Shown: positions 2,359 through 56,492, counted from the first letter of the stretch. The stretch is 64,000 nt of DNA from a virus (IMGVR_UViG_3300018080_000100), one strand, 5' to 3'. Numbers and translations: made by a program. Notes: generated from the letters alone by a model not told the origin.

Positions 2359-2756
2359 TCACTTCCTTTCAGTAACAGGTAGATGACGCCCACGTGGAGC
2401 GTCGTTTGGACAAACGAACTACCGAAATACTTCCGGTGCTTGAAGAACCGGTCTCGCTGGTGTCCTTGCCAAAAGGACCCCAGCTGAGAAGTTCTTTTGG
2501 CACCACCGTACTGCTTCAACATATCGCGCACACGCGCTCGAGAATGACCAGCTTCCAGCAATGCTGCGGCGCAGGTAAGCACCGTAGCGTCGAACAGTGA
2601 CAGTAATCTTGCGCTGCCTCGACCAGCCCGTGAGGCCCGCAGGCCCTCTACGAGGTCGTGGTCGAGTGCGTAGCGCAATGTTCGCAAAGGTAGATCTGTA
2701 CGTTCGGCGATCGCCGCTAGGTCTAGCTTTTTGATCACATGATCAACTTTGGTCAC
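2355..2756 (-). CDS. putative HTH DNA-binding protein; its start overlaps the recurring palindromic motif
   Basis: Helix-turn-helix-like segment LDLAAIAERTDLPLRTLRYAL. The inverted-repeat motif at 2729-2750 lies over the 5' end; the true start is uncertain. Confidence 0.35.
   Translation of the reverse strand: MTKVDHVIKKLDLAAIAERTDLPLRTLRYALDHDLVEGLRASRAGRGSARLLSLFDATVLTCAAALLEAGHSRARVRDMLKQYGGAKRTSQLGSFWQGHQRDRFFKHRKYFGSSFVQTTLHVGVIYLLLKGSE
2729..2750 (-). promoter_or_regulatory. conserved inverted-repeat motif overlapping the start of an HTH gene
   Basis: ttttgatcacatgatcaacttt. Confidence 0.4.
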
Positions 2757-2786
2757 CGGTATCCTCCTGCAAGTATGATAGCACTA

Positions 2787-3794
2787 TCAGCTATCTTGAA
2801 CAACCCCCTCTTGAGAAGATTCGTCATTTTCGGCGTCTTTTAGCCGAATGTTCCGCGGAGCCCGGTTCTCAATGGGGGGTAGGTCAGGGCCGGCCGCGGT
2901 AACGATCTCATTGTCCGCCATCACGGCGTCGTAGCTGTCGGACGACCAGTTGCCAAACATCCGTTGCTCAGCCCGACGCCGGTTCGCCAGCTGTTGATAC
3001 GCTGATTCGTACGTAGCGCACGCTGGACTGTAGGATGGCTGCGGGTCTTCCAGCCGATGCGCGCCGCCAACCAGCCGTCCCATGCTCGTAACGTAGGGTT
3101 CATGCCCTGCAGCGTATTCGACAACTACGATGTTATCGAGGCGCTGCAGCACACGGCACATACCCCAAGCGACAGCGTCTCTGGAACGAAACTCCGCAGC
3201 GTTTATGGCCTGATGCCTGTCGTCGTAGATGAGATCCGTGTCTTGCCAGTCCTCGTCCTGATGACGGTTCTGCACCATGTAGGACACACGCGGCGATACA
3301 GGTGGGTTACTCGGAAGGGCGCCCATAGCTACCTCCAGATCAGAACGGCCATCCGGATAGCGCCGGTTGGCTATGTCGTCGTCCGAACGCACCATCGTCA
3401 CAGAGTCGTCGTAATGGCCGAGTCGGCGCGCAGTCTCGGCGGCCGCCACCATCCCTTCCGTCGGTATTGGCTCTACGGTCTCGTAGTGATCCAACAAGCC
3501 ACCAGGCGCAGGCACGCCAGTGATCGTTTCGACCGGCTCTACGTTCACCACCTTGTTATTGGCGATGACCATACGATAGCGCGGATGGCCGGCAGGAAAC
3601 TCGACCAGGACCCGCGCATCGCGATCGATCACGCGGCAAGCAATACGCTCATCACGCGAGCGCCATTCGGCGTCGCGCGCTGCGTTACCCAGGTCAGCAT
3701 ATTCCACACCACTGCCCCAATCGTTCCCATCGCGGGCACGGTGCTGCACCCAAAACTTATTGGGCTTCTCCCGCCTACGAAACGGCCATACCAT
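2787..3794 (-). CDS. hypothetical protein with internal two-fold repeat
   Basis: Two repeat copies: ARDAEWRSRDERIACRVI..FPAGHPRY and AINAAEFRSRDAVAWGMCRVL..YAAGHEPY. Confidence 0.5.
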   Translation of the reverse strand: MVWPFRRREKPNKFWVQHRARDGNDWGSGVEYADLGNAARDAEWRSRDERIACRVIDRDARVLVEFPAGHPRYRMVIANNKVVNVEPVETITGVPAPGGLLDHYETVEPIPTEGMVAAAETARRLGHYDDSVTMVRSDDDIANRRYPDGRSDLEVAMGALPSNPPVSPRVSYMVQNRHQDEDWQDTDLIYDDRHQAINAAEFRSRDAVAWGMCRVLQRLDNIVVVEYAAGHEPYVTSMGRLVGGAHRLEDPQPSYSPACATYESAYQQLANRRRAEQRMFGNWSSDSYDAVMADNEIVTAAGPDLPPIENRAPRNIRLKDAENDESSQEGVVQDS

Positions 3795-4446
3795 CGAAGC
3801 GTTCCTCTGGTCGCGCTATGTCCACGTGCTCCAAGCAGATGCGGGACCACAGCTCGAAATCGTCCATCGCGGCTACCAGCAAGTCCTTCGTACGCCAGTC
3901 CAGCTCGACGATGTCGTCTTCGTTGGATTGACAGTCGGTAGCGGCGCCAAGGTGCAGCACATGCACCACGCCCAGATGTACCTGCCCTACGGGCGTTTGG
4001 TCCTCGTGGACAAGCCCGACAGTGCGCATGGTCCAGACAGGCGGCTGGGGCTTGAATTGCAGCTCCTCCGTCAGCTCGCGCAGCATGCCGCGGATATACA
4101 TGTCGGACATGAACTCGTTGCGCTCAGCGAGACGGCCCAGCTGCGAATACGCGAGATCGCACGGGTTGATGTGCCCGCCGATGCCGATCGAGCGCTTGCC
4201 GTGCAGCCGCTTCTCGCCTTGCCCGCCGCCGCGCCAGTAATTCATGAGGCGCTGGCCGCGTTCCACGATGATGTAGGGGATCAGCTGCTTGAAGCTGGAA
4301 TCCTCTTCTACTGCGTCGCGCGGTTGGAACGACTGGTTGCTCTCTGCGAACAGCGGCGTGTAGTTGCTGCTGAGCGGCATGAAGCCGTTGAAGTAACCGC
4401 ACTCACGAAACAGGGGTGTGCCTACGCACAGAACTTCTTCACTCAT
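3775..4446 (-). CDS. Nudix-like hydrolase (tentative)
   Basis: GGHINP...RGMLRELTEELQF resembles a Nudix box (REuxEExGu). gaaaggag SD upstream of the internal Met start at 4446. Confidence 0.4.
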   Translation of the reverse strand: MSEEVLCVGTPLFRECGYFNGFMPLSSNYTPLFAESNQSFQPRDAVEEDSSFKQLIPYIIVERGQRLMNYWRGGGQGEKRLHGKRSIGIGGHINPCDLAYSQLGRLAERNEFMSDMYIRGMLRELTEELQFKPQPPVWTMRTVGLVHEDQTPVGQVHLGVVHVLHLGAATDCQSNEDDIVELDWRTKDLLVAAMDDFELWSRICLEHVDIARPEERFDGMAVS

Positions 4447-4493
4447 TGTGACTCCTTTCACAGAAATATAGCGACTCTGCCCAGACGGGTCAA

Positions 4494-5228
4494 CTAGAAC
4501 GTCCGGAGCGGAATGCCACCCATCAGGGCAGCGTGTGTTGAGAATGACGACCAATAAGTCCCTATCAACTCCTTGGTGCGTGCTAACGAGAATAGATCGA
4601 TTGCCGAGTCGGCCACAGATGTATGCCGGCCACGTCGTGCGCGCTGCGGGCGCATAGTCTGTTCGCGCCAGATAATACGATCGCCGTAGAGCCGCCGCAG
4701 CCACTTCACGCTGTCGAAGTTGTCCGAACAGAGCAGGAACTGCGCGTCGGCGTCTTCAGCGACTACGCGATCAAGCTCCTTCTTCAACAGCGGGTCGGAC
4801 TGACGACAGTTTGGTAGGTCGGTACGCCGGACATGCAGGCCAATGGCGTCGGCCGGCACGGTCTCCATGAACGCCTCCAGCGTGTCCTCGAACTCTGGCT
4901 GCAGCCGTAGCGCACGCGCCCGTGCTGTGGCAATAGTCATGAATTCGTCGTGGGGGATCTCCAGTTGCGTCCTGTTGTACCATTCGACGATGTGCGTCGA
5001 GCGTTCTCCTACGAACTCGCGGATGCGCTTGTACTTACGCCCATCACGCCGAGACGGCATGATCGCGCAGGTGTCTGGCACGAATACGTCAGCGAACGTG
5101 GAGCTACACGCCGCATGTCGGTTCCAGTGCACCAGAAACGACAAGCCGTAGTAGTCGGCAATCGCCCCAATGCCGGTCCAACCACGCAGCCTGTTGCACA
5201 GGCCGCTCTGCGTGCAGTGCTGCATGAT
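4494..5228 (-). CDS. GT11/GT23-type fucosyltransferase-like glycosyltransferase
   Basis: N-terminal SGLCNRLRGW resembles the GGLGNQMFQY motif. IGLHVRRTDL matches the HxRRxD fucosyltransferase motif I. The longer ORF version (to 5480) overlaps the neighbouring gene. Confidence 0.5.
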   Translation of the reverse strand: MMQHCTQSGLCNRLRGWTGIGAIADYYGLSFLVHWNRHAACSSTFADVFVPDTCAIMPSRRDGRKYKRIREFVGERSTHIVEWYNRTQLEIPHDEFMTIATARARALRLQPEFEDTLEAFMETVPADAIGLHVRRTDLPNCRQSDPLLKKELDRVVAEDADAQFLLCSDNFDSVKWLRRLYGDRIIWREQTMRPQRARRGRHTSVADSAIDLFSLARTKELIGTYWSSFSTHAALMGGIPLRTF

Positions 5229-5266
5229 AACCGGGAACGTGTGGCGCGTACGTCCAGGCGCCGGAA

Positions 5267-5798
5267 TTATGCCGGTCCTTCGCGGGATAGCTTTTCTGCA
5301 AAGCGCCTCAGCCTGCTTTTTCCAGTTCTGTTTACCCACGGAAATGTCCGATCTGGGACGGGCAGATTTAGAAACGCGCATAGCGGCTCCCATCCGTCGC
5401 CGCCGCATACGTCGTACACCAGCAGGTCGTCCTGCCGTTCCGCAAAGTGCTTGTAGACAGCTGCTGTGTGCTCGTCCCATTTTCGTCTATGCAGCGCAGG
5501 ACTGCCTCCAAATTGCGACATGCGGCTGATGATCCACGGGTCCATGTCTCGGACAGTCAGGATGAACTTGCTGCCCGGGTACGCCGCGTCCAGCTCGCGG
5601 AACATGTAGTTGATCGGCGAGTCACAGAAAGCATTGTACTCCTCGTCGAGAGAGTGCAAAGGCGGCTTTCCGTGTCGCTTGTTCTGCCTGGCAACCGTCT
5701 TGACCTTGCGAGCCCAGTGCAGGCAATTGAAGCCGAGGATGTTCAAGGCCTTCTGCAGCGATGCAGTGCCGGTCTTGTTCATCCCTATACCAAGTATG
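5267..5798 (-). CDS. sulfotransferase (P-loop PAPS-binding type), tandem paralog A
   Basis: GIGMNKTGTAS 5'-PSB-like P-loop. Paralogous to 5812-6357. Probable GTG start with an aagggga SD. Confidence 0.6.
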
Positions 5799-5811
5799 AG
5801 TGATTTGGCCA

Positions 5812-6357
5812 CTAGGCTAATCCCCTTCTTTTTAGCGCTCGGCGACGGCGACGGCGTAGGTACGGCGTCGTCTTGTTCTTCCACGGGAACGGCTGATCGG
5901 GCACAGGCACGCCTAAGAACTCGCACAGCGGCACCCAGCCCACGCCGTCGCATAGATGGTACACAAGGATGTCGTCTTCACGGCCCTTGAAGTAGCGTGC
6001 CACCGCCTCGCAGTGGTCGTCCCAGCAGCGAGAGTGGTACTGTCGCGTATCACCGAATTGGATCATACGGCTCTTGATCCAGGCTTCCTTGCTCCGCATC
6101 GTGAAGATGAAACGGCTACCCGGATATGTGATGTCCAATACCTCAAAATGCAGGGGTATGGGGCAGTCGCAGAACGCGCGGTACTCGTCGGTGAGCGAAT
6201 GCAGTATCGGCCGCTTGCGCAGCTGATTCTCCTCGATGACCTTGCTGACACGTACTGAGTCGTGTAGGCAAGGAAACCCAAGCACGTCCAGGGCGCGCGT
6301 CAGTGACACCGTCCCGGTCTTGTTCATCCCTATGCCAAATATGAATGGCTCATCCAT
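5812..6357 (-). CDS. sulfotransferase, tandem paralog B
   Basis: MDEPFIFGIGMNKTGTVS P-loop at the N-terminus. Aligns with the upstream paralog along its length. Confidence 0.65.
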   Translation of the reverse strand: MDEPFIFGIGMNKTGTVSLTRALDVLGFPCLHDSVRVSKVIEENQLRKRPILHSLTDEYRAFCDCPIPLHFEVLDITYPGSRFIFTMRSKEAWIKSRMIQFGDTRQYHSRCWDDHCEAVARYFKGREDDILVYHLCDGVGWVPLCEFLGVPVPDQPFPWKNKTTPYLRRRRRRALKRRGLA

Positions 6358-7093
6358 GATGCTTCCTCGCTGCTTCTTCTAGCGCCGCAGACTCAGCTGG
6401 TGATACACGCCAGCGTTCTGTCTTACGACCTTTCCAGTTACGTCCCAAATGTCCCAAATGCAGCACTGCATAATCAACCCACGGCAGCAGCAGGCGTTTC
6501 TCGTCAGCCCACTCGAGCCCCAGGGCCACATCATACTTGGCCGCAGTGCGGTTTTCACTTATGCCGATTGGACGTGTCGGGTAGTGCCAGAGTTGAAAGT
6601 AGCCTTCGATACCGATCGGGTTGGATGTTGGGCGCTTGCCCCACACCTTGTTCTTACGCACAGCAGGTAGCGGATCAAGCCCTAGAGAATACCAGGACTT
6701 CTTGCGTTTGCACCGCTTCCACTGCGCCTCGGTCTTACAGCTACGACGACGCGCGCTGTAGAGGCACGTCTTGTCCAACTCGTTGAGTCCGACCCTGTCC
6801 GGTGGCGGCGGCATCATCAGGATGTCGGAATCCATAAACAGCAGCCAGCCGTCCGGCTTAGCATAAGCCAGTGCCTCGTTGAGAGCTGCCCCCTTGTTAA
6901 ACGGCGCGTTGTATTTGTTCCAAGCGCATGTCTTGAAGCACTCAGCGCCGCACCGCTTTGCCACCGCTTCCGTCGATCCGTCCGTCAGGCTCGTAGCCAC
7001 TACCACGCGCCCGTAACGTACCGCCTCCGGCAGCGTCAACGCTAGGAAGTCGCTGTAGTCGACGCTCGTCATTATGATGGTGAGCTGTGGCAT
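6350..7093 (-). CDS. GT-A fold glycosyltransferase (GT2-like)
   Basis: DxD-like FMDSDIL motif and N-terminal Rossmann-like beta strand. 8-bp overlap with neighbouring genes. Confidence 0.5.
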   Translation of the reverse strand: MPQLTIIMTSVDYSDFLALTLPEAVRYGRVVVATSLTDGSTEAVAKRCGAECFKTCAWNKYNAPFNKGAALNEALAYAKPDGWLLFMDSDILMMPPPPDRVGLNELDKTCLYSARRRSCKTEAQWKRCKRKKSWYSLGLDPLPAVRKNKVWGKRPTSNPIGIEGYFQLWHYPTRPIGISENRTAAKYDVALGLEWADEKRLLLPWVDYAVLHLGHLGRNWKGRKTERWRVSPAESAALEEAARKHHG

Positions 7094-7096
7094 ACG

Positions 7097-7750
7097 TCAT
7101 TTGGCTTTACGGATCATCTTCTTGTGCCAGCCGCTCATGAAGGACCGACGCCGGTACTTCCCGCGCAGCTCGGAAAAGCCGTCTTGCTGACCTACGATCA
7201 TCTTCTTGGCCACCAGGCACAGCGACTTGGGCTGCACCTTGTAAGCGTACCAGCGATCGATCGGCTGGGTCGCCACGCAGTACGCCGGGAACAGCGAACG
7301 GTGTACAGCATAGGCGTGCCCGCACAGGTAGCCGCCGCGTAGCTGACACAGGTGTTTGCTGAAATCGCGCGCACCCGTGGGTATGTTCACGCGGCGCTGT
7401 GACGGATAGCCGCCCATGTAGAACAGCCGCCAATCCGTCTGCGACAGCTCATGGATAACGCCGGCCATCTCGGAGGTATCGAGCACCTTGATATCGTCCT
7501 CGAAGATAAGGACGTTGTCCAGATCTTCTTCCATCGCCCAGTTAGCGCAGGCGACGTGGGACCGGTAACACCCGCGTTCGGGGTCTTCCGGGTCTTCGAT
7601 TGCAGAGAAGCGCTCCACGCGGTGCGCTATACCCATCTTCTCGAACTCGGCCTGGGCCTGCTCCCAGCGATCGGTGTGGCTGTCCAGGTTGATACAGAGA
7701 ATACGATCGAAGTATCCGCACGGGTTCAGCCCGTCGAATTCCTTAGTCAT
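7097..7750 (-). CDS. glycosyltransferase family 25 (LPS/LOS beta-1,4-galactosyltransferase-like)
   Basis: ILCINLDSHTDRW signature near the N-terminus and an IFEDD acidic motif. Confidence 0.6.
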   Translation of the reverse strand: MTKEFDGLNPCGYFDRILCINLDSHTDRWEQAQAEFEKMGIAHRVERFSAIEDPEDPERGCYRSHVACANWAMEEDLDNVLIFEDDIKVLDTSEMAGVIHELSQTDWRLFYMGGYPSQRRVNIPTGARDFSKHLCQLRGGYLCGHAYAVHRSLFPAYCVATQPIDRWYAYKVQPKSLCLVAKKMIVGQQDGFSELRGKYRRRSFMSGWHKKMIRKAK

Positions 7751-8565
7751 TTGAAGCTCCTAACGGTTGCGGCCAGTGGAAACGGGCCTCTGGCAGAGAA
7801 GTCGACTCTGCCCTTTGAGTGCCACCGTGTCCAGCGCCACGACGGCCGAACTAGTGAAGCTAGGCCGATGTGCTGGCACACCGCTGGGTGCATCCGATAG
7901 ATGTCGCACGCGCTACGGACGTGCGCGCAGAACTTGTTGTCGAAGCCCATACGCATGTTATGGCGTCGACTGGCCCAAGGGAGCACTGCTTTGATGCCTT
8001 CGGGCGTGACGTAGTAGCACTGCGCCGTGACGCCACCATGCGGCACGTACGTCATCGGGCTGCGCTTCTGCGAATTCTTCTTGTTGATCCAACATCCGGC
8101 AACAAGACCGACAGGACGTCGATTTGGTTCAGGCTCTTGCGCTGCAGTCGTCATACGCGCCATCCAGTCCGCGTTGAACACTACGTCGTCCTGCATAATT
8201 ATAATGCCGTGATCACGCCCGAAACTTTCGACCATCCGGCAGAACGCCTGACAGGATGCGTTCACCACGCCGGACGGGCCACGGCCCAGGCGGATGACCC
8301 GGACCTTGCCGTCCAAACCCGGGCTCTTGTTCCGCGAACGCACCTGATCTAGGTCCATATCGCGCCACCGCTGCGACCTCGGCCACGATGCGCCTACAAA
8401 CACCGGCTTGTCCGTGTACAGGTAATCCTTTGTGGACTGCTGGTTGCTGGCATCGTCAAAGACAACTACCTGCTGGTCAGCAGGTAGGTCAGATGCGCTA
8501 AGCGAACGCAGCGTCACATCGAGCATGGTGTGACGGTTACGTGTTACAATCCCGATCGGAATCAT
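7747..8565 (-). CDS. GT-A fold glycosyltransferase (GT2-like)
   Basis: IGIVTRNR...VVVFDDAS pattern typical of GT2 N-terminal region. ATGA overlaps on both sides. Confidence 0.5.
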   Translation of the reverse strand: MIPIGIVTRNRHTMLDVTLRSLSASDLPADQQVVVFDDASNQQSTKDYLYTDKPVFVGASWPRSQRWRDMDLDQVRSRNKSPGLDGKVRVIRLGRGPSGVVNASCQAFCRMVESFGRDHGIIIMQDDVVFNADWMARMTTAAQEPEPNRRPVGLVAGCWINKKNSQKRSPMTYVPHGGVTAQCYYVTPEGIKAVLPWASRRHNMRMGFDNKFCAHVRSACDIYRMHPAVCQHIGLASLVRPSWRWTRWHSKGRVDFSARGPFPLAATVRSFK

Positions 8566-9662
8566 GCCCAGTCCTTGATATACGGCTCGACGGCTATCAG
8601 ATCAGGCCGCTGTTCGACAGCCTGGTCGCGTGATGCCTTATCATAGAAGATTCGCAGCACGTAACCACCCCAACCAGAGCCACAGTATCGATGGCAGATC
8701 TGTCCAGGCATAGACGTCAGTGGCGCCATCCCTTCGTCCAGTTGCATCTCGTGCGTGAGCGCAACGCCCTCCGCTAGTAGATGCAAATTGTTGTCAGCTA
8801 CGCCTGCATGGGCACGCGCGCCGGCTTCAACTAGCTTGTCGTAGTCTCGTGGCGTATCCACGAGGTCAACCGTGCAATGCGGCTTGCCTGTCCATTCCAG
8901 CAGCATTCTGCCGTTCAGCATCTCCGGATTGCGTTTGAGCACCAGCACGGGATATGCACCGGAGCGCCAGCTGCACAGCCCTGTCTCTTTGATGACAGCA
9001 GGGTCTTGCCAGCCAACACCGCTACGCAGCTCCGCGGCCACCGGGTCTTTACCCTGCAACAGCGCCCAGGCCGCAGAGCCGCCCACACCGCCTCCAGGCT
9101 TGTACACAGGCTTATCCAGGCTCATCATCGGCGTGATCGCGCAGTTCACGATGCAGCCGTCGTCGCGCGCCAACCGAGGCACGTCGAGCCAGCCGCCGGC
9201 CAGGTCCACCCGCGCGGGACAGCGATCGGGCGCAGCCATTTTGATGCGCAGGTCCGTGGAGCTAACGCTGTCGGGCACCGGTGTCTTCGGAATCTGTACG
9301 TACTTGACGCCGAGCTTGGCGCACAGCTCCTTCTTCTGCGAGACGTACTTGTCATCGACCGTTGCGGCGAGGATGTCGAAGTCGCCCGAGCGCATCGTCA
9401 GCTCGAAGTTCGTCTCAGGCGCCCAGTCGCTGCCGCCGATTACTACGGAGTCGACGAAGTCTATCGAGAGTAGGATGAGCTTCTTGTGCGACGCAGGCAG
9501 ACAGGGTTCACGACCCTTAATCTGCTTTACGACGTCGTCCGTAGGCACAACGACCGTCAGATGATCGCCGAGTGCTTTGGCTTCGCGAAGAAATTGGACG
9601 TGACCGGCGTGGATAACGTCGTACGTCCCGCTGACAAGAACCTTTACTTTCCGATCTGCCAT
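8562..9662 (-). CDS. bifunctional nucleotidyltransferase (HxGH cytidylyl/adenylyltransferase-like) + GHMP sugar kinase
   Basis: N-terminal KVLVSGTYDVIHAGHVQFL (H-x-G-H). C-terminal KPGGGVGGSAA (GHMP P-loop). Start assigned to the internal MADRK. Confidence 0.6.
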   Translation of the reverse strand: MADRKVKVLVSGTYDVIHAGHVQFLREAKALGDHLTVVVPTDDVVKQIKGREPCLPASHKKLILLSIDFVDSVVIGGSDWAPETNFELTMRSGDFDILAATVDDKYVSQKKELCAKLGVKYVQIPKTPVPDSVSSTDLRIKMAAPDRCPARVDLAGGWLDVPRLARDDGCIVNCAITPMMSLDKPVYKPGGGVGGSAAWALLQGKDPVAAELRSGVGWQDPAVIKETGLCSWRSGAYPVLVLKRNPEMLNGRMLLEWTGKPHCTVDLVDTPRDYDKLVEAGARAHAGVADNNLHLLAEGVALTHEMQLDEGMAPLTSMPGQICHRYCGSGWGGYVLRIFYDKASRDQAVEQRPDLIAVEPYIKDWA

Positions 9663-10399
9663 CTGTAACTCCCGTGCTGATAGTCGAAGCTCGTGAAGCG
9701 ATGCCGCTGCGCCATTTCCGTGTAGACACGGACGAGCAACGTATGGATCGGCGCATCGCCCCAACGCTTCGTATAGATGCCACCGTGCTTCTCGATGGCT
9801 TCCAGCGCTTCTTTGCACGGGGAGGTCAACCAGAGAGACGGCTTAGCGATATGGAAATTGTTGTAGTAGATCTTCCGGTCCCACTTGTAGGTACCGAAAG
9901 CAGGATCATGCGCACGCAGCATCGCCTTCAGGCCGCGGACCGCAGTCTTGGATTCTGGACGTGTCGCGCGCCACGCGTAGACCTTGTTGCCCTCTGCCAT
10001 GACCTCGAACGGGTCGTCGTGCATCTTGGAGCGGATGTACGAGTCATCGTCGAGGCGCATGTAGTAGTCGAAGTCCTTCAACATCGGGTATAGGCCCAAC
10101 GAGAAGAACCGGCACATGTTGCGGTAGCCGATGCTGTGCGACTGTGACAGCGTCCACTCGTTGAACTTGCTTACGTCGATGTGCGGCGGCGGCGAGATGT
10201 CGACCTGCTTGAGCACTACACGCGCGCAGCGCTCTTGCATCTGCCGCAGATGCTCATCCGTGAAGTCGCCCTCGTGGCAGACGACGACTGGGTGTGGATG
10301 CGCATCCAGCAGATTCTTCTGGAGCAGCTTCAGGCTTCTGAGCAGCTTGTCCAGTCTACGAGTCTGTGCCAAGTAGATGATCACTGTATTCATGGGCAT
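9644..10399 (-). CDS. GT15-like (Kre2/Mnt1-type alpha-1,2-mannosyltransferase family) glycosyltransferase
   Basis: YRNMCRFF and YYMRLDDDSY motifs resemble GT15 signatures. SD tgaggag upstream of MPMNT. Confidence 0.45.
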   Translation of the reverse strand: MPMNTVIIYLAQTRRLDKLLRSLKLLQKNLLDAHPHPVVVCHEGDFTDEHLRQMQERCARVVLKQVDISPPPHIDVSKFNEWTLSQSHSIGYRNMCRFFSLGLYPMLKDFDYYMRLDDDSYIRSKMHDDPFEVMAEGNKVYAWRATRPESKTAVRGLKAMLRAHDPAFGTYKWDRKIYYNNFHIAKPSLWLTSPCKEALEAIEKHGGIYTKRWGDAPIHTLLVRVYTEMAQRHRFTSFDYQHGSYRWQIGK

Positions 10400-10506
10400 A
10401 CCACTCCTCACCACATACGGTCGCCCCAACCGCTCGATCCCCTGGAACGCCGCCTGGTGCCGATCGTTGAGTCAAGTCTAGCCGCGTGTACTTCGCAAGC
10501 AGAGGA

Positions 10507-10528
10507 ACTTTGATCACATGATCAAAGT
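10507..10528 (-). promoter_or_regulatory. perfect 22-bp palindrome instance of the motif
   Basis: actttgatcacatgatcaaagt, between csp and the GT15-like gene. Confidence 0.45.
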
Positions 10529-10737
10529 TAGACTACCGTCACGTTCTCCGCCTTGGGCCGTCCGCCCTTGCCCTCTCCCTCGGTGAAGTCGACCTGCTGG
10601 CCCTCGATGAGCGCATCAAAGTCCGACTTCTGGGGGAGCCCTGAACAGTGAAAGAATATGTCGGATCCGCCGGCGTCCGGCTGGATGAATCCAAAACCAC
10701 GCTCCATCACCAACTTCTTGATGGTGCCTCTTGCCAT
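10528..10737 (-). CDS. cspA: cold-shock protein (CspA family)
   Basis: GTIKKLVMERGFGFIQPDAGG..DIFFH with RNP1/RNP2 motifs; 69 aa. Confidence 0.85.
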   Translation of the reverse strand: MARGTIKKLVMERGFGFIQPDAGGSDIFFHCSGLPQKSDFDALIEGQQVDFTEGEGKGGRPKAENVTVV

Positions 10738-10775
10738 CTTCTTCTCCTAACGCTATCTAACGTGTTGTGCTGCGC

Positions 10776-11078
10776 TTAGTTAAGAATCGCGTACAGATCG
10801 GATTCCTTAGCCAGCACGTAATCAACTCCGTCAAGTGTAACGGTTTCCGCGTACGCTGAGAAGAGCACGCGGCTACCTACTGTCACCTGCTTGCAGTCGA
10901 TTCCGACCGCTACAGCGGTGCCCGTCTGCGGCTTCTCGGTCGAGCCCTCGGGCAGTGTAATGCCACCAGGCGACATCGTTTCCCGCGGATCGGGCGTGAT
11001 CAGCACGCGCTCTCCAATCGGCTTGCAGTCCACAGGATTGCACTTACACTTGTCATCACAAGCACATCCACTAGCCAT
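10776..11078 (-). CDS. groES: GroES/Cpn10-like co-chaperonin with Cys-rich N-terminal extension
   Basis: IGERVLI..TPGGITLPEGS..GTAVAVG..VGSRVLF..ILN Cpn10 pattern, preceded by MASGCACDDKCKCNPVDCKP. aaggaga SD upstream. Confidence 0.6.
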   Translation of the reverse strand: MASGCACDDKCKCNPVDCKPIGERVLITPDPRETMSPGGITLPEGSTEKPQTGTAVAVGIDCKQVTVGSRVLFSAYAETVTLDGVDYVLAKESDLYAILN

Positions 11079-11080
11079 CT

Positions 11081-11947
11081 CTACTCTCCTTTGTGGTGGA
11101 AGACCTCTTCCATAGGTGCCCAGACTTCGCCTGGGGGTAATTCGCTGACGGGCTGCTGCAACGGTGTGCATAGCTTCCACCAGCGCTGTGTTTCCTCGTC
11201 CGCAGCCATCTTGGCCATGTCAGCCTCGTAGTCGTCGCCGACGTACTCGTAGTAGCTGAACAGGTAATCGTTCCCATCCGGCAGACGCGCCGCAAAGATC
11301 GAGTAGTTGCGGATGTTGCACTCCTCGATCTTACTCAGAACGGTTGCCCACACTTCGGCATGCAGCCGCCGATACTCGGCAAGCTTGCCCGGCGTGACCT
11401 GCACGACCATGCCGTAGCGGTTTGCAAGGCCCTTAGGCCAGATCGACTGTGCTAGGCTGCACCGCAGCTCGTCGACATCGAATACGACGTTGACGCCGAA
11501 CACACGCCCCTGCACCAGGAAACCCCTGCGTGTCACCCACTCAACCTCGACCACTGCACGGTTCTCTGGGATCTCTGGTACCTTTTCATCGCCGTATGCG
11601 CGTGCTATGCGCTTGAATACAGGCGACAGGATGCAGAAGCCCTTGTTAAGGTCCGACACGCTTATGGTGCGCCCTTCTGGCTCAGCTGCGAATACCAGCA
11701 GGTCGGGGTGAGCATCCAGTACGATGCAGCGCTTCTCCGTGTCAACCTGGCGGTCGAGTTCGATCACGATATCGGGGTCGTCGCCAAAGTCCCACGGCAA
11801 GAACATCCGTACGCGGCTTTCCTTGTCGGTGAACGCCATGGGTAGCCCGGTGACACCCTCCGCCTCGATTGCCGCGGCCACGTTGGGCCGGCGCGGGCGC
11901 AGCCAGTTCATAAACTCCGGCGTGATCTTGTATACATCGGTCGGCAT
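11081..11947 (-). CDS. fusion protein with C-terminal L-rhamnose mutarotase (RhaM/YiiL, Dabb) domain
   Basis: C-terminus EYRRLHAEVW..NYSIF..DGNDYLFSYYEY..QRWWKLCTP..EVF matches rhamnose mutarotase conserved residues. N-terminal ~190 aa unknown. Confidence 0.5.
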   Translation of the reverse strand: MPTDVYKITPEFMNWLRPRRPNVAAAIEAEGVTGLPMAFTDKESRVRMFLPWDFGDDPDIVIELDRQVDTEKRCIVLDAHPDLLVFAAEPEGRTISVSDLNKGFCILSPVFKRIARAYGDEKVPEIPENRAVVEVEWVTRRGFLVQGRVFGVNVVFDVDELRCSLAQSIWPKGLANRYGMVVQVTPGKLAEYRRLHAEVWATVLSKIEECNIRNYSIFAARLPDGNDYLFSYYEYVGDDYEADMAKMAADEETQRWWKLCTPLQQPVSELPPGEVWAPMEEVFHHKGE

Positions 11948-11983
11948 CTTTGTACCTCGCAACTACAAACTAAAGTGCGACTT

Positions 11984-12409
11984 TCACTCGTCGCCCAGTA
12001 GCTCCTCCCATTTGTCAATACGACGTACGTCACTGTCGTCGTGGTATGTGCTGGACTCGTAGGCCCACGTGTCGTGTTCGGCGCTCAGCCGATGCCAGTC
12101 GCCAGGATGCAGCATGATCGACCAGCCGGGCTGCAGCCTAGCGATCTGCAATGCCACCATCGAGTGGATGCCGGTGCGCATCAGCTGTTCTGGGTCGCCC
12201 TGCAAATACTCTACGACCAAACAGCCCGATTCGCAAGTAATTACCTCGGCCTTGATCGGATGCTTGTGAATGCTCGACTTCTTGCCCGCCTTGACGAACA
12301 GCGTCTTCTGGCACAGGTTGTGATTGACGTCATTGAGATGCCACGACTCGTAGCCCCAATCCTTCGGCACAAACTTCGCGGTTTGCACGGGAATGACTTC
12401 AGCTGCCAT
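11984..12409 (-). CDS. cupin-domain protein (sugar isomerase/epimerase-like?)
   Basis: KDWGYESW...H.H...E...PGDWH cupin two-motif pattern. Confidence 0.5.
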   Translation of the reverse strand: MAAEVIPVQTAKFVPKDWGYESWHLNDVNHNLCQKTLFVKAGKKSSIHKHPIKAEVITCESGCLVVEYLQGDPEQLMRTGIHSMVALQIARLQPGWSIMLHPGDWHRLSAEHDTWAYESSTYHDDSDVRRIDKWEELLGDE

Positions 12410-12725
12410 CTTCCTCTTCCTCCTCCTCGGGGTCGCCGTATATCTGTTTAACGTCGGTCTTGAACTCAGTCTTACAGTGTGCGCAGGTCACAATGCAAGG
12501 GGCCATGACCGGAAAACCCTCGTCGGGCTCGATATCGAGCGCGTGGTACACGAGGTTTTCCTCAATGAGCGAGCGGTAAGGCGGCATGATCGCACAGACG
12601 AAGTTCTGCCGTCCACACTCGTCACAATCCCACGCAAACGCGGGGTGTAGTTCGACTTCGATCACACCAGTAGCCCTGCACAGGTCAATATGATTAAGAG
12701 CGCCGCGCCGATGCCTGCTATCCAC
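12399..12725 (-). CDS. zinc-ribbon hypothetical protein
   Basis: CDECG...CAHCK pair of CxxC motifs; acidic C-terminal tail. Confidence 0.4.
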   Translation of the reverse strand: MDSRHRRGALNHIDLCRATGVIEVELHPAFAWDCDECGRQNFVCAIMPPYRSLIEENLVYHALDIEPDEGFPVMAPCIVTCAHCKTEFKTDVKQIYGDPEEEEEEDGS

Positions 12726-12765
12726 ATCGCAATGGCGAATTCGCTTGGAAACAGATCGTTCATGG

Positions 12766-13416
12766 TTACTTAGGCGGCTTGGCGGCGCGTTCGACAGCCA
12801 AGCAGACCTCTCCGTCTTTCTCGATGAGTGTGTTCATGTCGTCGAACGGGATATACGCTCGGCCGTTTTTGCCCCAGTTTTGGCCCCATGAGTTCTTGAT
12901 CCGGAACAGCCCGCGCTCCTTGGATACGCCAGTGACGAGGTAGGCATGCCCGCCGTAGTTTGGCCCTGTGGCCGACAGGACAGCGTCGGCGCCTGGCCGA
13001 TCCATGCCCTTGTACCAGTTGGTGCCCACAACGACCGGTCCGCGCTCCAGCACGGCGTCGAGCAGCGTGTCCACGTCCCAGGCCCACTCGTATCGGTCGA
13101 TCAGGCCGAGCATCTTGAGCACCTTGGCGCCTGCACGCACCGACGTGCCGTCGTAGTTGGTGCCCTTCCACTCGTCGTACTTCTTGCAGATCGTGTATAG
13201 GCCGTCGGGGTTGAGCCAGTGGCGGATCGGCGCGCTGGCCAGCCAGTGCGACCATGCAAAGCCCACACAATGCGGGGTGGCCTTCTGGTCCTGCCAGCAG
13301 CGATGATCCTGCCAGAAGCGATAGACGCGTTCGCTCGCTGTGCGTGGGATGCGGAATCGTCTGTCGCGGGCGTCGGGCTTGTAGCGCCGACCGTAGTTAC
13401 GCTTGGGCATTGTCAT
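12766..13416 (-). CDS. papain-like (C1) cysteine peptidase
   Basis: CVGFAW (catalytic Cys), GGHAYLVTG (His), KNSWGQNWGKNG (Asn/Trp) in C1-family order. Confidence 0.55.
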   Translation of the reverse strand: MTMPKRNYGRRYKPDARDRRFRIPRTASERVYRFWQDHRCWQDQKATPHCVGFAWSHWLASAPIRHWLNPDGLYTICKKYDEWKGTNYDGTSVRAGAKVLKMLGLIDRYEWAWDVDTLLDAVLERGPVVVGTNWYKGMDRPGADAVLSATGPNYGGHAYLVTGVSKERGLFRIKNSWGQNWGKNGRAYIPFDDMNTLIEKDGEVCLAVERAAKPPK

Positions 13417-14032
13417 GCTCCTTGTCTGGGTTTTGCCAACTTAGATCGTACCCGAAACGGCGATCGGCGTGAAACCAGGGCCTTACTGTGTTCCACAGCT
13501 CTGGCGTATACACCTGCCGAAAAGGTGGGTGCGCTGTATTGTAGTTGTCTTCCTGTATCGGCACCTGTGCGGCACCCACGTGCGCCATTACCTCATCGAA
13601 TCCGCGCTGCATGTCCTCGAACGGTACGACGAATGACACGATCGTACGTCCGTACCCGGCGCCTGCCGATGCGCTCGTCCAATGCGCGTTGGGCAACCTG
13701 CCATAAGCATGCGGCTGCAAGCCACGCACCCATTGTTCGAAGGATTTTCTACGAACACGTGAAGCCTGCATACGCTTTAAGAACCAGTAGAGCGACACCA
13801 AACGCGCCATAGGGTGGCGCACGGTCGTAAACCACGTATAGTCACGACACTGCGCATACTGCGGCATCTTCTTGAACTCTGCCGGCGATGTGTGTTGATC
13901 AGCCTGACGCGGCCACCGCGGCATAAACCAACGCTCGGCGCCCAACTCGTCCTGCAGCGTCCGCCCTATCGACGAACTGGCGCAGCGCGGATTACAGAAG
14001 AACAACAGCTTGTAGTCGTGCGCAACTATCAC
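13397..14032 (-). CDS. sulfotransferase-family protein (Sulfotransfer_2-like)
   Basis: N-terminal LLFFCNPRCASSS resembles the xxH/RxPKxxGTS sulfotransferase motif. Basic W-rich body. Confidence 0.45.
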   Translation of the reverse strand: MIVAHDYKLLFFCNPRCASSSIGRTLQDELGAERWFMPRWPRQADQHTSPAEFKKMPQYAQCRDYTWFTTVRHPMARLVSLYWFLKRMQASRVRRKSFEQWVRGLQPHAYGRLPNAHWTSASAGAGYGRTIVSFVVPFEDMQRGFDEVMAHVGAAQVPIQEDNYNTAHPPFRQVYTPELWNTVRPWFHADRRFGYDLSWQNPDKEHDNAQA

Positions 14033-14430
14033 TGGACTAACACCTTGGAGATGTCGAGCAGTGCGTGACAGACGCGCAGGGCGTACTGGTTGGTATTGAT
14101 CAGATCAGGCTCGAGGGCGTGGTCCTCTTCCAGCTCATCGTCGTCCTTCATGGTCTTGACGATCTCGTCCAGGTGCGCAATGCAGTCCTTGGCCGCACAG
14201 CTGCGGATGAACTCGCCATAGCGGGCAGTCAGCTCAGGTACGGTGGCGCCAGCGTCGCGCTCGGTGCGCAGCTTCGTGAGAAACTCCTCCAGCTCCTCGG
14301 CTGCTTCGCGCAACTCAACGGCCAGCTGGGACAACTGGTGCATGTATCGGACGCTACGTGACATGAAGTTCCTCCACGAGGTCTGCAACCTCTTCGCCAA
14401 CTGGATAACCGAACTCCTCGAACCATGCAA
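14029..14430 (-). CDS. hypothetical helical protein
   Basis: 133-aa ORF, 4-bp overlap with the downstream gene. Confidence 0.4.
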   Translation of the reverse strand: MHGSRSSVIQLAKRLQTSWRNFMSRSVRYMHQLSQLAVELREAAEELEEFLTKLRTERDAGATVPELTARYGEFIRSCAAKDCIAHLDEIVKTMKDDDELEEDHALEPDLINTNQYALRVCHALLDISKVLVQ

Positions 14431-36726: not shown

Positions 36727-36738
36727 CGGCTGAGGGCT

Positions 36739-36778: not shown

Positions 36779-36799
36779 TGCGGGATCGGAGCCTCTGTG

Positions 36800-45407: not shown

Positions 45408-45873
45408 CGGTAGCGTCCCACTCTTCCACCTCTTCCGGTGTGATGAGACACTGATTCTTAGGCGTGACCAGCCGACCGAGTTTGTCGACGGCGTAGATGA
45501 ACTTGGGTTCGGCCTTAATGTTGGCCATGCCCTGCAAGACTGTCGTCTTGAGCTCGTCCGGGTCGCCTTCCATGAAGGCCATCAGTTGTGACGGATTGGG
45601 GGTGAAACCCCACTGCTTGACGAATGCCACAACAGCAGCCTTCTGTTCGTCGGTGTACTGTGACGCCAACGTCTTGTACGGATTCACGACGGGCGGTGGC
45701 GGCGGTTCTGGCCGTCCACAGCAGCGCTTGAACTTCTGGCCGGAACCACAAGGGCAGCGTGCGTTCCTGCGTGTAGCTGGCGCCTGATTACGGATAGGCG
45801 CCAGCTTGGTCCGTTCGGGCTTGCGCCCAGGCTTACGACCGTAGGTGGCCGTATTTCGACGTTTCGACATCAC
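45304..45873 (-). CDS. SEC-C motif (zinc-binding) protein
   Basis: RCPCGSGQKFKRCCG matches the SecA C-terminal metal-binding motif. Confidence 0.45.
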   Translation of the reverse strand: MMSKRRNTATYGRKPGRKPERTKLAPIRNQAPATRRNARCPCGSGQKFKRCCGRPEPPPPPVVNPYKTLASQYTDEQKAAVVAFVKQWGFTPNPSQLMAFMEGDPDELKTTVLQGMANIKAEPKFIYAVDKLGRLVTPKNQCLITPEEVEEWDATVAEYQEASDANERTEGVAGVLAGSVPEEGAGSPG

Positions 45874-47979: not shown

Positions 47980-49995
47980 TTACATCATGGGCATGCCACC
48001 CATGGGCTGACCGCCCATCGGCGGTGGGGCCATGCTTCCTTGCTGGCCCGCCATTGCAGCCTCCTGGCCCATCTGCCTGCCACGAGCTTCGGACTGCGAG
48101 TCCATCTGCTCCAGCAGCGACTTGACCAGGCTGTGGATCGTCGGATTACGCTGCTTGAGCTGTCGCAGCGCAGATTGCCGCTGGCCGCCAGGCATAGCGT
48201 AAATCTGCTGAGCAATGGTCTGTGCAATGGATTCCAGTTCTGGCGGGGTGAGCCCCTGCTCGTTGCCCATAGGCAGCTGCGCCATGACCGCCTGGACCGG
48301 ATCCATCGGCATCGCTGCCTGATCCGGTGACGGTGCCTCGCCACCCATAGGTGCGGCACCACCGGCTGCTCCGGGCTGGACCGGCGGCACCACGCCACCA
48401 GCACCTGGCCCAGGCATAGCGCCCATGGCCGCAGGATCGCCCCCAGCGGCTCCTGGGCCGCCTGCGCCCATTGCCAGTTGATCGCCCAGTCCGCTCGCTT
48501 CGAGCTCCTCCTGGGCCTTCTGGGACTCCTCAGCGACGAATTTCTGCTCCTCCAGCATGCGCTTCTGCTCGTCCTCGAATACCAGGCCCACGCCTCTGCG
48601 AAGGCCGGTAGTCTGGGAGACCTGGCCACCCATCATCAGCTGCAGGACAGCCAACTGACGGTTCAGGTCGTCTGCGTGGCTCGGGCGCGCTAGCCGGGCG
48701 GTCACCTCGTCCCAGCTGAGCGCCACCGAGATCTTGTTGCAGATCCACTGGAGGTAGTTGTTCAGCATGTAGGTCAGGTGGCTCCAGTGACTCTCCATGA
48801 GCCGCAGGGCCGCGGGCGCAGCCTGTACAGTGAGATCGCCCTTGTAGAACTGCACAGGGATACCTACCGAAGACAGCAGCGTGTCGAGCGCCTGGTCCAT
48901 GAGCTGGTAGGGTGCCAACTGGCTGGCCTCACCACCGAGCGCCTGGTAGCGCACCGGGAACGGCAGCGTGAACCACGTGGTCGGGTCTTGCCGCCGCTGC
49001 CGCAGCATGGAATTGACCTGCCCAGTGAAACCGCCGAGATCGGCAGTGAACAGCGGGTCTGTCATCTCACCGCCGCCTGCTCCGCCGCCCGGCCGAGGCT
49101 CGGGGGTCAGCACGCGGAACGGGATGATATAGTCGAGGCCGATTGCCTCGTTGTATCGGTGCAGTACCTGGAGATACCAGGCCTGCCGGAAGTTGGTCAG
49201 CACGCGGCTGATGCCCCAGCCTTTGTTCAGTACACCAGCAAGGGTATCCTCCTTGCCATGGTAGATCACGTCCTTGTTGAACTCGATGTGCGTGTTGTTC
49301 TTGACAGCCTGCACAACCTCCCACGGAGCGCGCTCCAAATGGAAGAGGGTACCTCTGGTGATGTACTGCTTGTAATGCTGCGGGATGCGCCAGATGTGTC
49401 CGACCTCGTCGGTATACGGATCCCAGGCGAGTTCCATCTCGTGCGGGCTCCAGCGCTTGATGATCAGATCGTCTTCCTCGTGGGAGCGGCGGTCGATGTG
49501 CGTCCACTTGCCGTGGTAGTTGCAGAATGGGCAATGCGCACGGAACTCTGAGCCCTGCCACGTGTAGCTGAACTTCTCGTTGCCGTGGATCTGGCGCAGG
49601 GGCGCCTCGAACCCACAGCCCGGGCACGAGAGGTTGCGCCGGAACGGGATCACGACCGATCCGAAGAAGTTGCCGTAGGTGCAGTAGTCGAGCGCGGCCT
49701 GCCGCAGCTCTGTATGGATTCCCAACGTGTTGTTCAGGAAGTCGAGATACTTCTCCTTCCCGTCACGGTCAGTGCCGTCGATTTCGACCTCAGTGATGAA
49801 GTACGAGATCACCCGGTCTACTGCAGACCGGTAGACACCGTTTGCCAACATGATGTATTCGCACCACCGCATAGCGTTCTGCAGTGAGCTGGGCATCGCT
49901 GTCGAGGCATAGTCACAGAATGGGTCCGGGAATGGCTCGACGTTTTGCGAACCGAGATTGGCCCCACCCGTGAAGTTGGGAATCAGATACGACAT
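47980..49995 (-). CDS. putative portal (head-tail connector) protein, T7 gp8-like, with zinc-ribbon insertion
   Basis: Segment LMDQALDTLLSSVGIPVQFY and the M/A/G/Q-rich C-terminal tail parallel T7 gp8. CPGCG...CPFCN insert. Confidence 0.45.
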   Translation of the reverse strand: MSYLIPNFTGGANLGSQNVEPFPDPFCDYASTAMPSSLQNAMRWCEYIMLANGVYRSAVDRVISYFITEVEIDGTDRDGKEKYLDFLNNTLGIHTELRQAALDYCTYGNFFGSVVIPFRRNLSCPGCGFEAPLRQIHGNEKFSYTWQGSEFRAHCPFCNYHGKWTHIDRRSHEEDDLIIKRWSPHEMELAWDPYTDEVGHIWRIPQHYKQYITRGTLFHLERAPWEVVQAVKNNTHIEFNKDVIYHGKEDTLAGVLNKGWGISRVLTNFRQAWYLQVLHRYNEAIGLDYIIPFRVLTPEPRPGGGAGGGEMTDPLFTADLGGFTGQVNSMLRQRRQDPTTWFTLPFPVRYQALGGEASQLAPYQLMDQALDTLLSSVGIPVQFYKGDLTVQAAPAALRLMESHWSHLTYMLNNYLQWICNKISVALSWDEVTARLARPSHADDLNRQLAVLQLMMGGQVSQTTGLRRGVGLVFEDEQKRMLEEQKFVAEESQKAQEELEASGLGDQLAMGAGGPGAAGGDPAAMGAMPGPGAGGVVPPVQPGAAGGAAPMGGEAPSPDQAAMPMDPVQAVMAQLPMGNEQGLTPPELESIAQTIAQQIYAMPGGQRQSALRQLKQRNPTIHSLVKSLLEQMDSQSEARGRQMGQEAAMAGQQGSMAPPPMGGQPMGGMPMM

Positions 49996-53790: not shown

Positions 53791-53887
53791 TCATTAGGGT
53801 CCTCCCTCTACAGCAGTCAACAGAAAAAGGCGCCAAGACCACATAGTCTTGACACCTTATAATGCCGCGTTCTGCAGTAGCGTAAAG

Positions 53888-55607: not shown

Positions 55608-55624
55608 TTAGCTGTCCTCCAAAG

Positions 55625-55700
55625 GCACCAGCAGGGTATCGAACCCTGACAGTTGGGGCTATGTAACCCCTGTCGCCACCACCATGGTGCAGATGCCCGG
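55625..55700 (-). tRNA. possible tRNA or tRNA-like element (canonical T-arm; irregular D region)
   Basis: The minus-strand reading has CAGGG-TTCGATA-CCCTG (T53-C61 consensus) followed by the acceptor 3' strand CTGGTGC, with a matching 5' GCACCAT. It sits in a 130-bp intergenic gap. Confidence 0.3.
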
Positions 55701-55737
55701 CCACCGGGTTGGCCTAGAAAGCGGAGTCTGACGACAT

Positions 55738-56460
55738 TTACACCAACTGAGCGCGCTCAACCAGCGTCTTGACCGTTTCGGCCTGTCGCAGGGAGCTGGT
55801 CGCCAACTCCTCCGCAGTCGTCTCCACATTGTAGTATCGAAGGAGACTGTAAAGGTCCAAGTCCTTCTGATCGTTGGATGGCAAAAGGACGTCGAACGGA
55901 TCATATACACCAACAGGATTATGCCAGAGCTTGACGGGCACTACAACCCGCTCGGCGTCCGTAACCTGTGTATTCCGATGGAGTACCTCGGCCGCTGCGA
56001 TGCGCAGGACCTGCTTCAAGTTGAACCCGAACAACGAGGCGTCGGGGTCTGCGTCTCCGTACCGAAGCGACGTGGCGAATTGCCGCGGATACGCTTCACG
56101 GAGGAAATTGATGAGCGGCAGCGCCACTCGCGCGCGGCTGAGTTCCCCGGTCTTCAGCACCTGCGTGTACACACATGTGCCGTCCTTGTCGAGGATGACT
56201 GCCGAGGCCAACACGCCGACCATTGGCCGATGCGCATGATTCTCATAGGCGTCGTCGCTTGGGACGACACTGCCCGCAAATCCGAGCGGCGGGAACTTCA
56301 TGTGTTCCTCGCGCTCGCCACGTACCTTGGCGATGTGGTTGTCGATAGTCGCTTGCTTCGACATCGTGCCAGGTACTTTGATTGGCCCGAAGAAGGTCGA
56401 GCCGTCCTTGGCGCCCACTATGGTCGCCCCGAAATAGAGTGCTTCGCTAGGCAAGTTCAT
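55738..56460 (-). CDS. hypothetical protein
   Basis: 240 aa; motif at 56466-56492 upstream. Confidence 0.4.
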   Translation of the reverse strand: MNLPSEALYFGATIVGAKDGSTFFGPIKVPGTMSKQATIDNHIAKVRGEREEHMKFPPLGFAGSVVPSDDAYENHAHRPMVGVLASAVILDKDGTCVYTQVLKTGELSRARVALPLINFLREAYPRQFATSLRYGDADPDASLFGFNLKQVLRIAAAEVLHRNTQVTDAERVVVPVKLWHNPVGVYDPFDVLLPSNDQKDLDLYSLLRYYNVETTAEELATSSLRQAETVKTLVERAQLV

Positions 56461-56465
56461 GCCTC

Positions 56466-56492
56466 CTCAATCTTGATCATGAGATCAAATTC
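56466..56492 (-). promoter_or_regulatory. inverted-repeat motif variant
   Basis: caatcttgatcatgagatcaaattc (centre differs). Confidence 0.35.

Follow-up and report, generated by a model that had tools for sequence, protein, structure and literature searches.

The window, as the whole stretch of 64,000 nucleotides from the virus IMGVR_UViG_3300018080_000100 will be called here, comes from a phage, which encodes a portal protein of 671 amino acids at 47980-49995, and it carries eleven copies of a palindromic element of 22 bp dispersed among its genes. All of the credible genes in these 64 kb are on the minus strand, the strand on which every copy of the palindrome is described below, and open reading frames (ORFs) occupy approximately 90% of a sequence with a GC content of about 59%. 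The palindrome is a real, non-random, and evolutionarily maintained regulatory DNA motif that is specific to this kind of phage.

When up to three mismatches are allowed, TTTGATCANNTGATCAAA is matched 11 times in the 64 kb, against an expectation of 0.07 matches obtained from 100 dinucleotide-preserving shuffles, none of which (0/100) reached 11. The 18-mer cores of these copies start at 2730, 10509, 15065, 29046, 31060, 31515, 33863, 35078, 36707, 43329, and 56472, the positions by which the copies are named here, and a twelfth palindrome is found at L031:20485, 10 kb past the left edge of the window. Despite the density of the ORFs, 9 of the 11 copies are located at gene boundaries or in non-coding DNA. 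The original prediction, which was made from the sequence alone, listed ten of these sites, all of which exist within a few bases of where it placed them, and missed the one at 29046; its view of a recurring motif upstream of many genes was upheld in part by the scan of the window.

The copies share, on the gene strand, a symmetric consensus of 22 nt, a-n-YTTG(A/T)TCA-YR-TG(A/T)(A/T)CAAR-n-t. The correlation between the position frequency matrix and its reverse complement is r = 0.92, and the half-site spacing TTGAT-N6-ATCAA is kept in every copy. The flanking positions A(-2) and T(+19), which lay outside every search pattern, are conserved in 22 and 20, respectively, of the 24 copies from the window phage and its relatives, and the copy at 10507-10528 is, as had been predicted, a perfect palindrome of 22 bp, ACTTTGATCACATGATCAAAGT. 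These data support the view that the symmetry of the element is that expected for the site of a protein dimer. The sense strand favours A at both W positions, and an asymmetry between GATC and GAAC has the same orientation in 7 of the 11 window copies, a weak bias of 7:1 that is reversed in the contigs L013 and L031.

The distance from the palindrome to the next start codon ranges from 0 to approximately 115 nt across the copies, and 6 of the 11 end no more than 20 nt from it. The placement of each copy 0-45 bp upstream of a start codon, as originally proposed, holds for about seven of the 11 copies, but not for those at 36707 (77 nt), 35078 (70 nt), and 10509 (~80-115 nt, up to the next credible gene), nor for the copies at 2730, which is inside a gene, and 29046, which is inside the 3' end of one. 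The first of the two latter copies (2728-2749) covers codons 4-9 of the MerR-like gene 2355-2756, with the core GTTGATCATGTGATCAAA on the gene strand, and the second (29044-29065), which has its GTTC/GATC asymmetry in the reverse orientation, falls within the 3' end of gene 29020-30249 and is separated by 40 nt from the next ATG. The copy at 10507-10528 directly follows the stop of the cold-shock-domain gene 10528-10737, and orthologous copies are retained at L013:6221 and L011:195.

In some cases, the element is in direct contact with the codons that delimit the genes. At 15063-15084, for example, it fills the space between the stop of an aldolase gene (15084-15806) and the ATG of 14354-15064, which follows at 0 nt, and at 43327-43348 its TGA is the stop codon of 43342-43875, with the ATG of 42768-43325 located 3 nt on. 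Neither of these two starts has a Shine-Dalgarno sequence, and they correspond to the two cases in which the original prediction had the motif adjoining the ATG; the L007 ortholog of the copy at 43329 is TTTCATCGCGAGAACAAAaATG. The TGA of the copy at 33861-33882 is also a stop codon, that of 33876-34739, and the next gene, 33483-33845, has its Shine-Dalgarno sequence and ATG in the 17 nt after this copy. The copy at 56470-56491 separates the stop of 56496-56972 from the Shine-Dalgarno sequence that serves 55738-56460.

An intrinsic terminator stands immediately before four of the window copies (31060, 31515, 35078, and 36707), and 5 of 12 copies directly follow such terminators when L031 is included. 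The copy at 31058-31079 comes after the terminator 31082-31101, with the Shine-Dalgarno sequence of the gene 30367-31041, which encodes a protein similar to the C-terminal domain of the RNA polymerase alpha subunit (alpha-CTD), 3-8 nt on, and that at 31513-31534 directly follows the terminator 31534-31553 and is itself followed by the Shine-Dalgarno sequence of 31133-31495; the two form a duplicated cassette of terminator, palindrome, and Shine-Dalgarno sequence. The copies at 35076-35097 (preceded by a terminator and then by a TTAGCCATCAG box, with the ATG at 35007 a further 70 nt on) and 36705-36726 (preceded by the terminator 36750-36781 and then by a TTAGCCCTCAG box, with the ATG near 36629 a further 77 nt on) are immediately upstream of the -10-like boxes 35053-35070 and 36682-36699, respectively, and are centred approximately 40 bp upstream of the predicted transcription start (-10-like box AAACRCGGCA-TAGAAG/TAATAT). 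Duplicated intergenic cassettes are found here as two pairs, 31042-31132 / 31496-31563 and 32140-32172 / 32707-32757, one of which is the terminator, palindrome, and Shine-Dalgarno cassette and the other ctttaacccgctcttgaaaggagcaaccc, which suggests the local duplication of regulatory modules before small genes.

The syntenic relatives of the window are nine IMG/VR contigs (L001-L009), with portals 67-79% and neighbouring proteins 35-75% identical, and a further relative, L013, spans the region equivalent to 1-15 kb of the window. In the relatives, the element stays at orthologous gene boundaries where the neighbouring proteins are just 45-75% identical. Upstream of the gene orthologous to 55738-56460, for example, the boundary has kept the element and the surrounding spacer has diverged, with TTTGATCTCATGATCAAG in the window, CTTATTGCTGTGAATAAA in L001, CTTGTTCACAGGAACAAA in L003 and L006, and CTTGATCACGTGACCAAA in L007; L013, in turn, retains copies after the cold-shock gene and within the regulator gene. 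An exact-pattern scan of IMG/VR for YTTGATCAYRTGAACAAR returned 14 isolated hits on unrelated contigs without protein similarity to the window, which are chance matches, and the exact window form is otherwise absent from this database.

The half-sites fall into lineage-specific types (TTGWTC, TTATTC, and TTCATC) and change as a pair, as in the TTATTC..GAATAA of L001 and the TTCATC..GATGAA of L005, the latter in one copy upstream of the portal gene, and mixed sites also exist, such as TTCATC..GAACAA in L007 (TTCATCGCGAGAACAA). The paired changes and the mixed sites would fit a protein whose specificity is relaxed at positions 3-4 of the half-site, and variation of this type is unlike that which would be expected from a base-paired stem.

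The original prediction had named two candidate regulators, of which the helix-turn-helix protein encoded at 2355-2756 on the minus strand proved to be a good candidate for the binder, given its MerR-type fold and the presence of the palindrome in all of the copies of its gene that were examined. The protein has 133 amino acids, and its membership in the MerR family rests on its homologs and its fold, because its own sequence is below the Pfam cut-off (no Pfam hit at E <= 0.01). It has three close homologs and 230 family members, and 14 of 48 aligned homologs match Pfam MerR_1 (PF13411). Its own best match by sequence in the PDB is GlnR. The AlphaFold model, which was based on the 48-sequence alignment, has a predicted local distance difference test (pLDDT) score of 88.4, with low confidence at residues 1-9, and an earlier alignment of 3 sequences, which gave a pLDDT of 52, was set aside.

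When this model was compared with the PDB using Foldseek, almost all of the top 40 matches were members of the MerR family (GlnR, CvkR, MtaN, NmlR, CueR, CadR, and CarH), with probabilities of 0.9-1.0, TM-scores of up to 0.70 on the target, and, for GlnR, a root-mean-square deviation of 2.3 Å over 71 residues. As modelled, the protein has the MerR-type winged-helix fold. The MerR-family dimers bind dyad sites of about 17-22 bp, and DNA-bound complexes are found among the Foldseek matches (GlnR, MtaN, NmlR, CueR, and CadR). No other sequence-specific DNA-binding domain was found among the approximately 60 window proteins scanned against Pfam, which are the scanned proteins referred to below.

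Most of the 230 family members start at residue 11 of the window protein, and the N-terminal decapeptide, which is the part encoded by the palindrome and is unstructured in the model, is an extension peculiar to the nearest relatives. The palindrome is present at this position in 7/7 gene copies, each from a different contig (TTGATCATGTGATCAA, TTGTTCACAAGATCAA, TTGTTCAGGTGATCAA, TTGATCACGAAAACAA, TTGTTCAGCTAAACAA, TTGTACCGAAGAACAA, and CTGTAACGAGAAACAA), and the DNA pattern persists while the encoded residues vary (VDHVIK, IVHKIK, VVQVIK, IDHENK, LVQLNK, and IVPKNK). A sigma-70-like promoter precedes the palindrome in all seven copies of the gene; that of the window, as read from the sequence, is TTGTTC-17 nt-TATCAT at 2775-2803 on the minus strand, and that of L013, at the equivalent place, is TTGTCA-17-TACCAT. 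The palindrome would thus fall at approximately +25 to +45 from the predicted transcription start, and the combination of a promoter and a palindrome in the early codons appears to be the arrangement of an autoregulated repressor gene.

Two further observations concern this gene. GATAGC/GCTATC inverted repeats flank the -10 box of its promoter (2757-2803, as well as L039:9925-9975 and L038 ~130-200), and may represent a second operator for another factor. In addition, a distant lineage encodes a sigma-70 region 4 protein (L040:3-653) with the MerR-like gene two genes downstream; no sigma-70 region 4 protein was seen in the window.

The other candidate of the original prediction, the alpha-CTD-like protein of 30367-31041 (minus strand), could not be sustained as the regulator. 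Its helix-hairpin-helix C-terminus resembles the Pfam families HHH_5 and RNA_pol_A_CTD with E values of ~5e-4, which are below the family cut-offs, and has 13 weak, consistent PDB matches to the RNA polymerase alpha CTD. The similarity of fold is present, but the alpha-CTD fold is not a dimeric reader of palindromes, and the sole link of this protein to the palindrome is the copy upstream of its gene.

Given this, the palindrome is understood here, with a probability of about 0.5, as the operator set of a dimeric regulator encoded by the phage, most likely the MerR-type protein of 2355-2756, which would also control itself. This understanding is based on the fact that the motif is non-random, symmetric, located at gene boundaries, and conserved between lineages, and the choice of 2355-2756 as the most likely binder is based on its MerR fold and the conserved palindrome in its own gene. 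The sign of the control, that is, repression or activation, is inferred from the positions of the copies.

In the mechanism proposed, the regulator gene would be transcribed from its own sigma-70-like promoter, and the MerR-like protein would shut it off through the copy that overlaps the first codons. The same protein would occupy at least 11 further copies (about a dozen or more) at gene boundaries, with an effect set by the position of each copy. Between adjacent genes, where most of the copies are located, the bound dimer would block the RNA polymerase arriving from upstream, and at 36707 and 35078, where the palindrome coincides in part with the -35 region that belongs to a phage -10-like box, binding would either repress or activate initiation. 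The outcome would be a genome-wide control, which would probably be temporal.

A number of points weigh against this proposal. The MerR-like gene was not retrieved from L001, L003, L005, or L007 in the alignment search of IMG/VR, and in L039 (14 kb), the most distant usable contig, only the copy in the regulator gene is recognisable. The 5 of 12 copies that follow terminators would leave a roadblock little to do, and an initiating role would make more sense at these sites; the copies that abut ATGs without a Shine-Dalgarno sequence are also awkward for a pure roadblock. The classic MerR geometry, in which the dyad lies in a -35/-10 spacer of 19-20 bp, is absent at every copy. Finally, another binder could be encoded among the approximately 25 small window proteins outside the scan or in the ~160 kb outside the window.

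The position of these copies after terminators leads to the main alternative, which is unlikely on the evidence as a whole, that the palindrome is a phage-specific promoter or its core, or an activator-dependent initiation site. Transcripts would be started at the 3' edge of the palindrome either by the host RNA polymerase, which a phage factor would redirect, or by a phage-encoded polymerase, yielding short-leader or leaderless mRNAs. Nothing else lies between the T-run and the Shine-Dalgarno sequence at the copies in question, and an ATG is found within 0-7 nt, without a Shine-Dalgarno sequence, at 15065, 43329, L007:18302, L005:4353, L031:20485, and L013:19098, as expected if the mRNA 5' end were there, although such starts would be explained equally well by reinitiation, with the help of the A-rich right arm, after a stop located 12-20 nt upstream. 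The GATC/GAAC orientation shared by 7 of the 11 window copies would also suit a promoter, and Arash, a phage distantly related to this one, packages a multisubunit RNA polymerase and a sigma factor of its own. On the other hand, a site with a symmetry of 22 bp, and one perfect palindrome among its copies, sets no direction of transcription by itself, the asymmetry is reversed in L013 and L031, and inspection of the sequence revealed no copy with a -10 element at 16-20 bp from its TTGATC half-site. In addition, one copy is within the coding sequence of the regulator, with a good sigma-70-like promoter upstream of it, the scanned window proteins include no detected RNA polymerase or sigma factor, and more ordinary promoter-like boxes are present (TTGACC-17-TATATT at 4403-4493, and GGCAnTATAAGGT). 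The promoter/operator of a dimeric regulator that was originally predicted is supported as an operator, by its symmetric site, and is less likely to be a promoter for a phage factor, a reading without positive support, as no -10 element lies at a usable distance. It is more doubtful still that the palindrome is the initiation site of an undescribed mode of phage transcription that would produce leaderless or near-leaderless mRNAs, possibly with the MerR-like protein as an activator together with the alpha-CTD-like protein. Two known types of promoter were also rejected at the copies: the sigma-70 promoter, of which the promoter scan found none and the -10 place of which is occupied by Shine-Dalgarno or coding sequence, and the classic MerR promoter, given that none of the copies has a -10-like hexamer 19-20 bp after its TTGATC half-site.

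The proximity of the start codons raises, in turn, the improbable idea that the palindrome acts in the RNA, either folded into a hairpin or as a linear site adjoining the ribosome-binding site, where it would be recognised by a translational repressor or a processing nuclease. Translational operators do lie within the distance at which 6 of the 11 copies end, the preference of the sense strand for A at both W positions is a strand-specific bias, and both arms change together between lineages; however, an A.A mismatch in the middle of the stem keeps 8 of the 11 copies from folding any better than shuffles (-0.6 to -2.4 kcal/mol), and the stem is also far too short for RNase III. The mixed half-sites of the relatives break two adjacent pairs, no Rfam family is matched, and the copies at 36707 and 35078 are upstream of the likely transcription start. 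Even less credence is given to the site of a host factor or structural DNA-binding protein of the ParB/parS or CRP/FNR type, for which the leads are that the centre of the L001 variant, TTCACGTGAA, matches the centre of the parS consensus, TGTTNCACGTGAAACA, and that TTGAT..ATCAA resembles the FNR/FixK boxes. The FNR/FixK box was ruled out by its spacing (TTGAT-N4-ATCAA, against N6 in every copy here), and parS by a match at 10-12 of 16 positions, in which the central 10 bp are alike and the outer positions differ, together with the lack of a ParB domain among the scanned window proteins, which also include no CRP-family protein. The differences in the half-sites between lineages point to a partner that evolves along with the phage, and a host factor would leave the conserved copy in the MerR-like gene unexplained. 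The Dam-methylation-sensitive site suggested in the original prediction is scarcely tenable, in spite of the presence of at least one GATC in every window copy, given that GATC is not enriched in the window (413 observed against 397 expected) and is lacking in the orthologs of L001 (TTATTC..GAATAA), L003 (TTGTTC..GAACAA), and L005 (TTCATC..GATGAA). The statement that every instance has two GATC sites was incorrect, as it is true of only three of the 11 copies (2730, 10509, and 56472), with one site in the other eight.

Other boxes are also found in the window. A second conserved box, AAACgCGGCAnTATAAGGT, with a -10-like TATAAG, is located on the minus strand at 53854-53871 and 37351-37368, and in a weaker form at 36682-36699 and 35053-35070 (minus), and is conserved at the orthologous place in L001 (L001:6146). 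Each of these boxes is followed by a small hairpin and a T-run, and then by a Shine-Dalgarno sequence, an arrangement which, judging by its sequence, looks like a phage-specific class of promoter with an attenuator-like leader. A further box, formed by a T-run and TTAGCYnTCAG, is found directly after several intrinsic terminators on the minus strand (~36730-36745, 35100-35115, and 30291-30305) and in related contigs (L031 ~20455, L001 ~20450, and L005 ~15830 and ~20500). It lies 3-10 nt before the palindrome in four cases, and in L005 a different, imperfect palindrome (CTTTTAGTAAACTAATAG) takes the place of the element after it. There are also sigma-70-like promoters in two intergenic gaps, TTGACC-17-TATATT (4403-4493) and TTGACA-17-AACAAT (16499-16649), and, because these are good matches, at least some of the genes would probably use the unmodified host RNA polymerase.

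As for the phage itself, its genome is probably larger than 200 kb, given that a metagenomic contig of 226,656 bp encodes a protein 99% identical to one from the window. The portal is only approximately 26% identical to those of the Salmonella phage Arash and the Vibrio phages D69, D148, and D181, and no portal from an isolated phage is closer. The majority of the scanned window proteins have no Pfam or PHROG family, and the PHROGs added almost no further annotation. A nucleotide search with window positions 30000-37000 against 50,697 phage records, and a tblastn search with a window protein of 560 amino acids, gave no match, no IMG/VR relatives were found through a protein of 467 amino acids, and the look-up of the protein at the right edge of the window found no record, with extension only leftward. 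A portal-profile search of GTDB (185,579 species genomes) found neither prophage relatives nor a clue to the host, and no integrase or lysogeny genes were found among the scanned proteins of these 64 kb of a genome that probably exceeds 200 kb.

The region 1-16500 of the window holds a dense cluster of genes that modify sugars or add sulfate, with several sulfotransferases, GT15 and GT25 glycosyltransferases, a cytidylyltransferase, a class II aldolase, a rhamnose mutarotase domain, and a papain-like peptidase, the targets of which may be the virion, the DNA, or the host surface. Elsewhere, the window encodes a ThyX thymidylate synthase (61334-62221), a peptide deformylase (62222-62674), an HD-domain protein (40213-40860), and a SEC-C-motif protein (45304-45873). 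A tRNA-like 3' fragment (cagggttcgataccctgctggtgcc) is located inside the non-coding gap 55608-55737, and ARAGORN called no tRNAs throughout the window.

The element is most likely, then, a dispersed set of phage operators with an autoregulated regulator, in an uncharacterised and probably jumbo phage clade. This clade is known from metagenomes alone, and the majority of its proteins are assigned to no family. The motif, together with the MerR-type protein that probably regulates through it, offers a first concrete handle on the gene expression of this phage, and the lineage-specific changes in the half-sites would suit the study of the co-evolution of a regulator and its dispersed operators. 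The current understanding of phage regulation is left unchallenged, as this is a known kind of phage gene control and not a new mechanism.

One known system with which the palindrome may be compared is that of the conserved inverted repeats (CIRs) of the Streptomyces phage phiC31, which are reportedly bound by the products of the repressor gene c. In both cases, short inverted repeats are present in many highly conserved intergenic copies across the phage genome, and one copy is tied to the autoregulation of the regulator's own gene, here by the evidence of the sequence. The differences are that phiC31 is a temperate actinophage of 41 kb, with a repressor that is not of the MerR type and an unrelated sequence, whereas the genome of the present phage is probably larger than 200 kb, and several of its copies abut or overlap start and stop codons.

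The latter feature is shared with the stoperators. In the Cluster A mycobacteriophage L5, gp71 is the repressor of a stoperator system. A repressor-stoperator system has also been described in the Streptomyces phage R4 (PMC10276819). The stoperators of L5 and R4, like the present copies, are numerous and scattered over the whole genome, in short intergenic spaces close to start and stop codons; their binding there blocks the elongating RNA polymerase, besides the control of promoters, as the bound dimer would do here. However, stoperators are asymmetric sites of 13-14 bp with a fixed orientation, in temperate phages, whereas the site here is a symmetric 22-mer, and a strict stoperator is ruled out by this symmetry (r = 0.92), the perfect palindrome, and the orientation bias that is reversed in L013 and L031.

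Among the MerR regulators, those of the GlnR/TnrA type are the most similar to the protein of 2355-2756, given that their winged-helix domain is its best match in both structure and sequence, and they bind dyads of 17-22 bp as dimers at various promoter positions. The protein nevertheless differs from the MerR family in its C-terminal half, in which no long coiled-coil helix is evident in the model, and the classic spacer geometry of the family is found at no copy here.

Finally, the C1 repressor of phage P1 and KorA/KorB of plasmid RK2 are cases in which one regulator acts on a dozen or more operators over a large replicon. They resemble the present case in the coordination of separate transcription units by scattered operators, and differ from it in the asymmetry of the P1 C1 sites and in KorB, which belongs to the ParB family and acts at a distance, with no sequence or protein family in common. 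By analogy, then, the nearest functional precedents would be the CIRs of phiC31 and the stoperators of Cluster A and R4, followed by P1 C1 and RK2 KorB.

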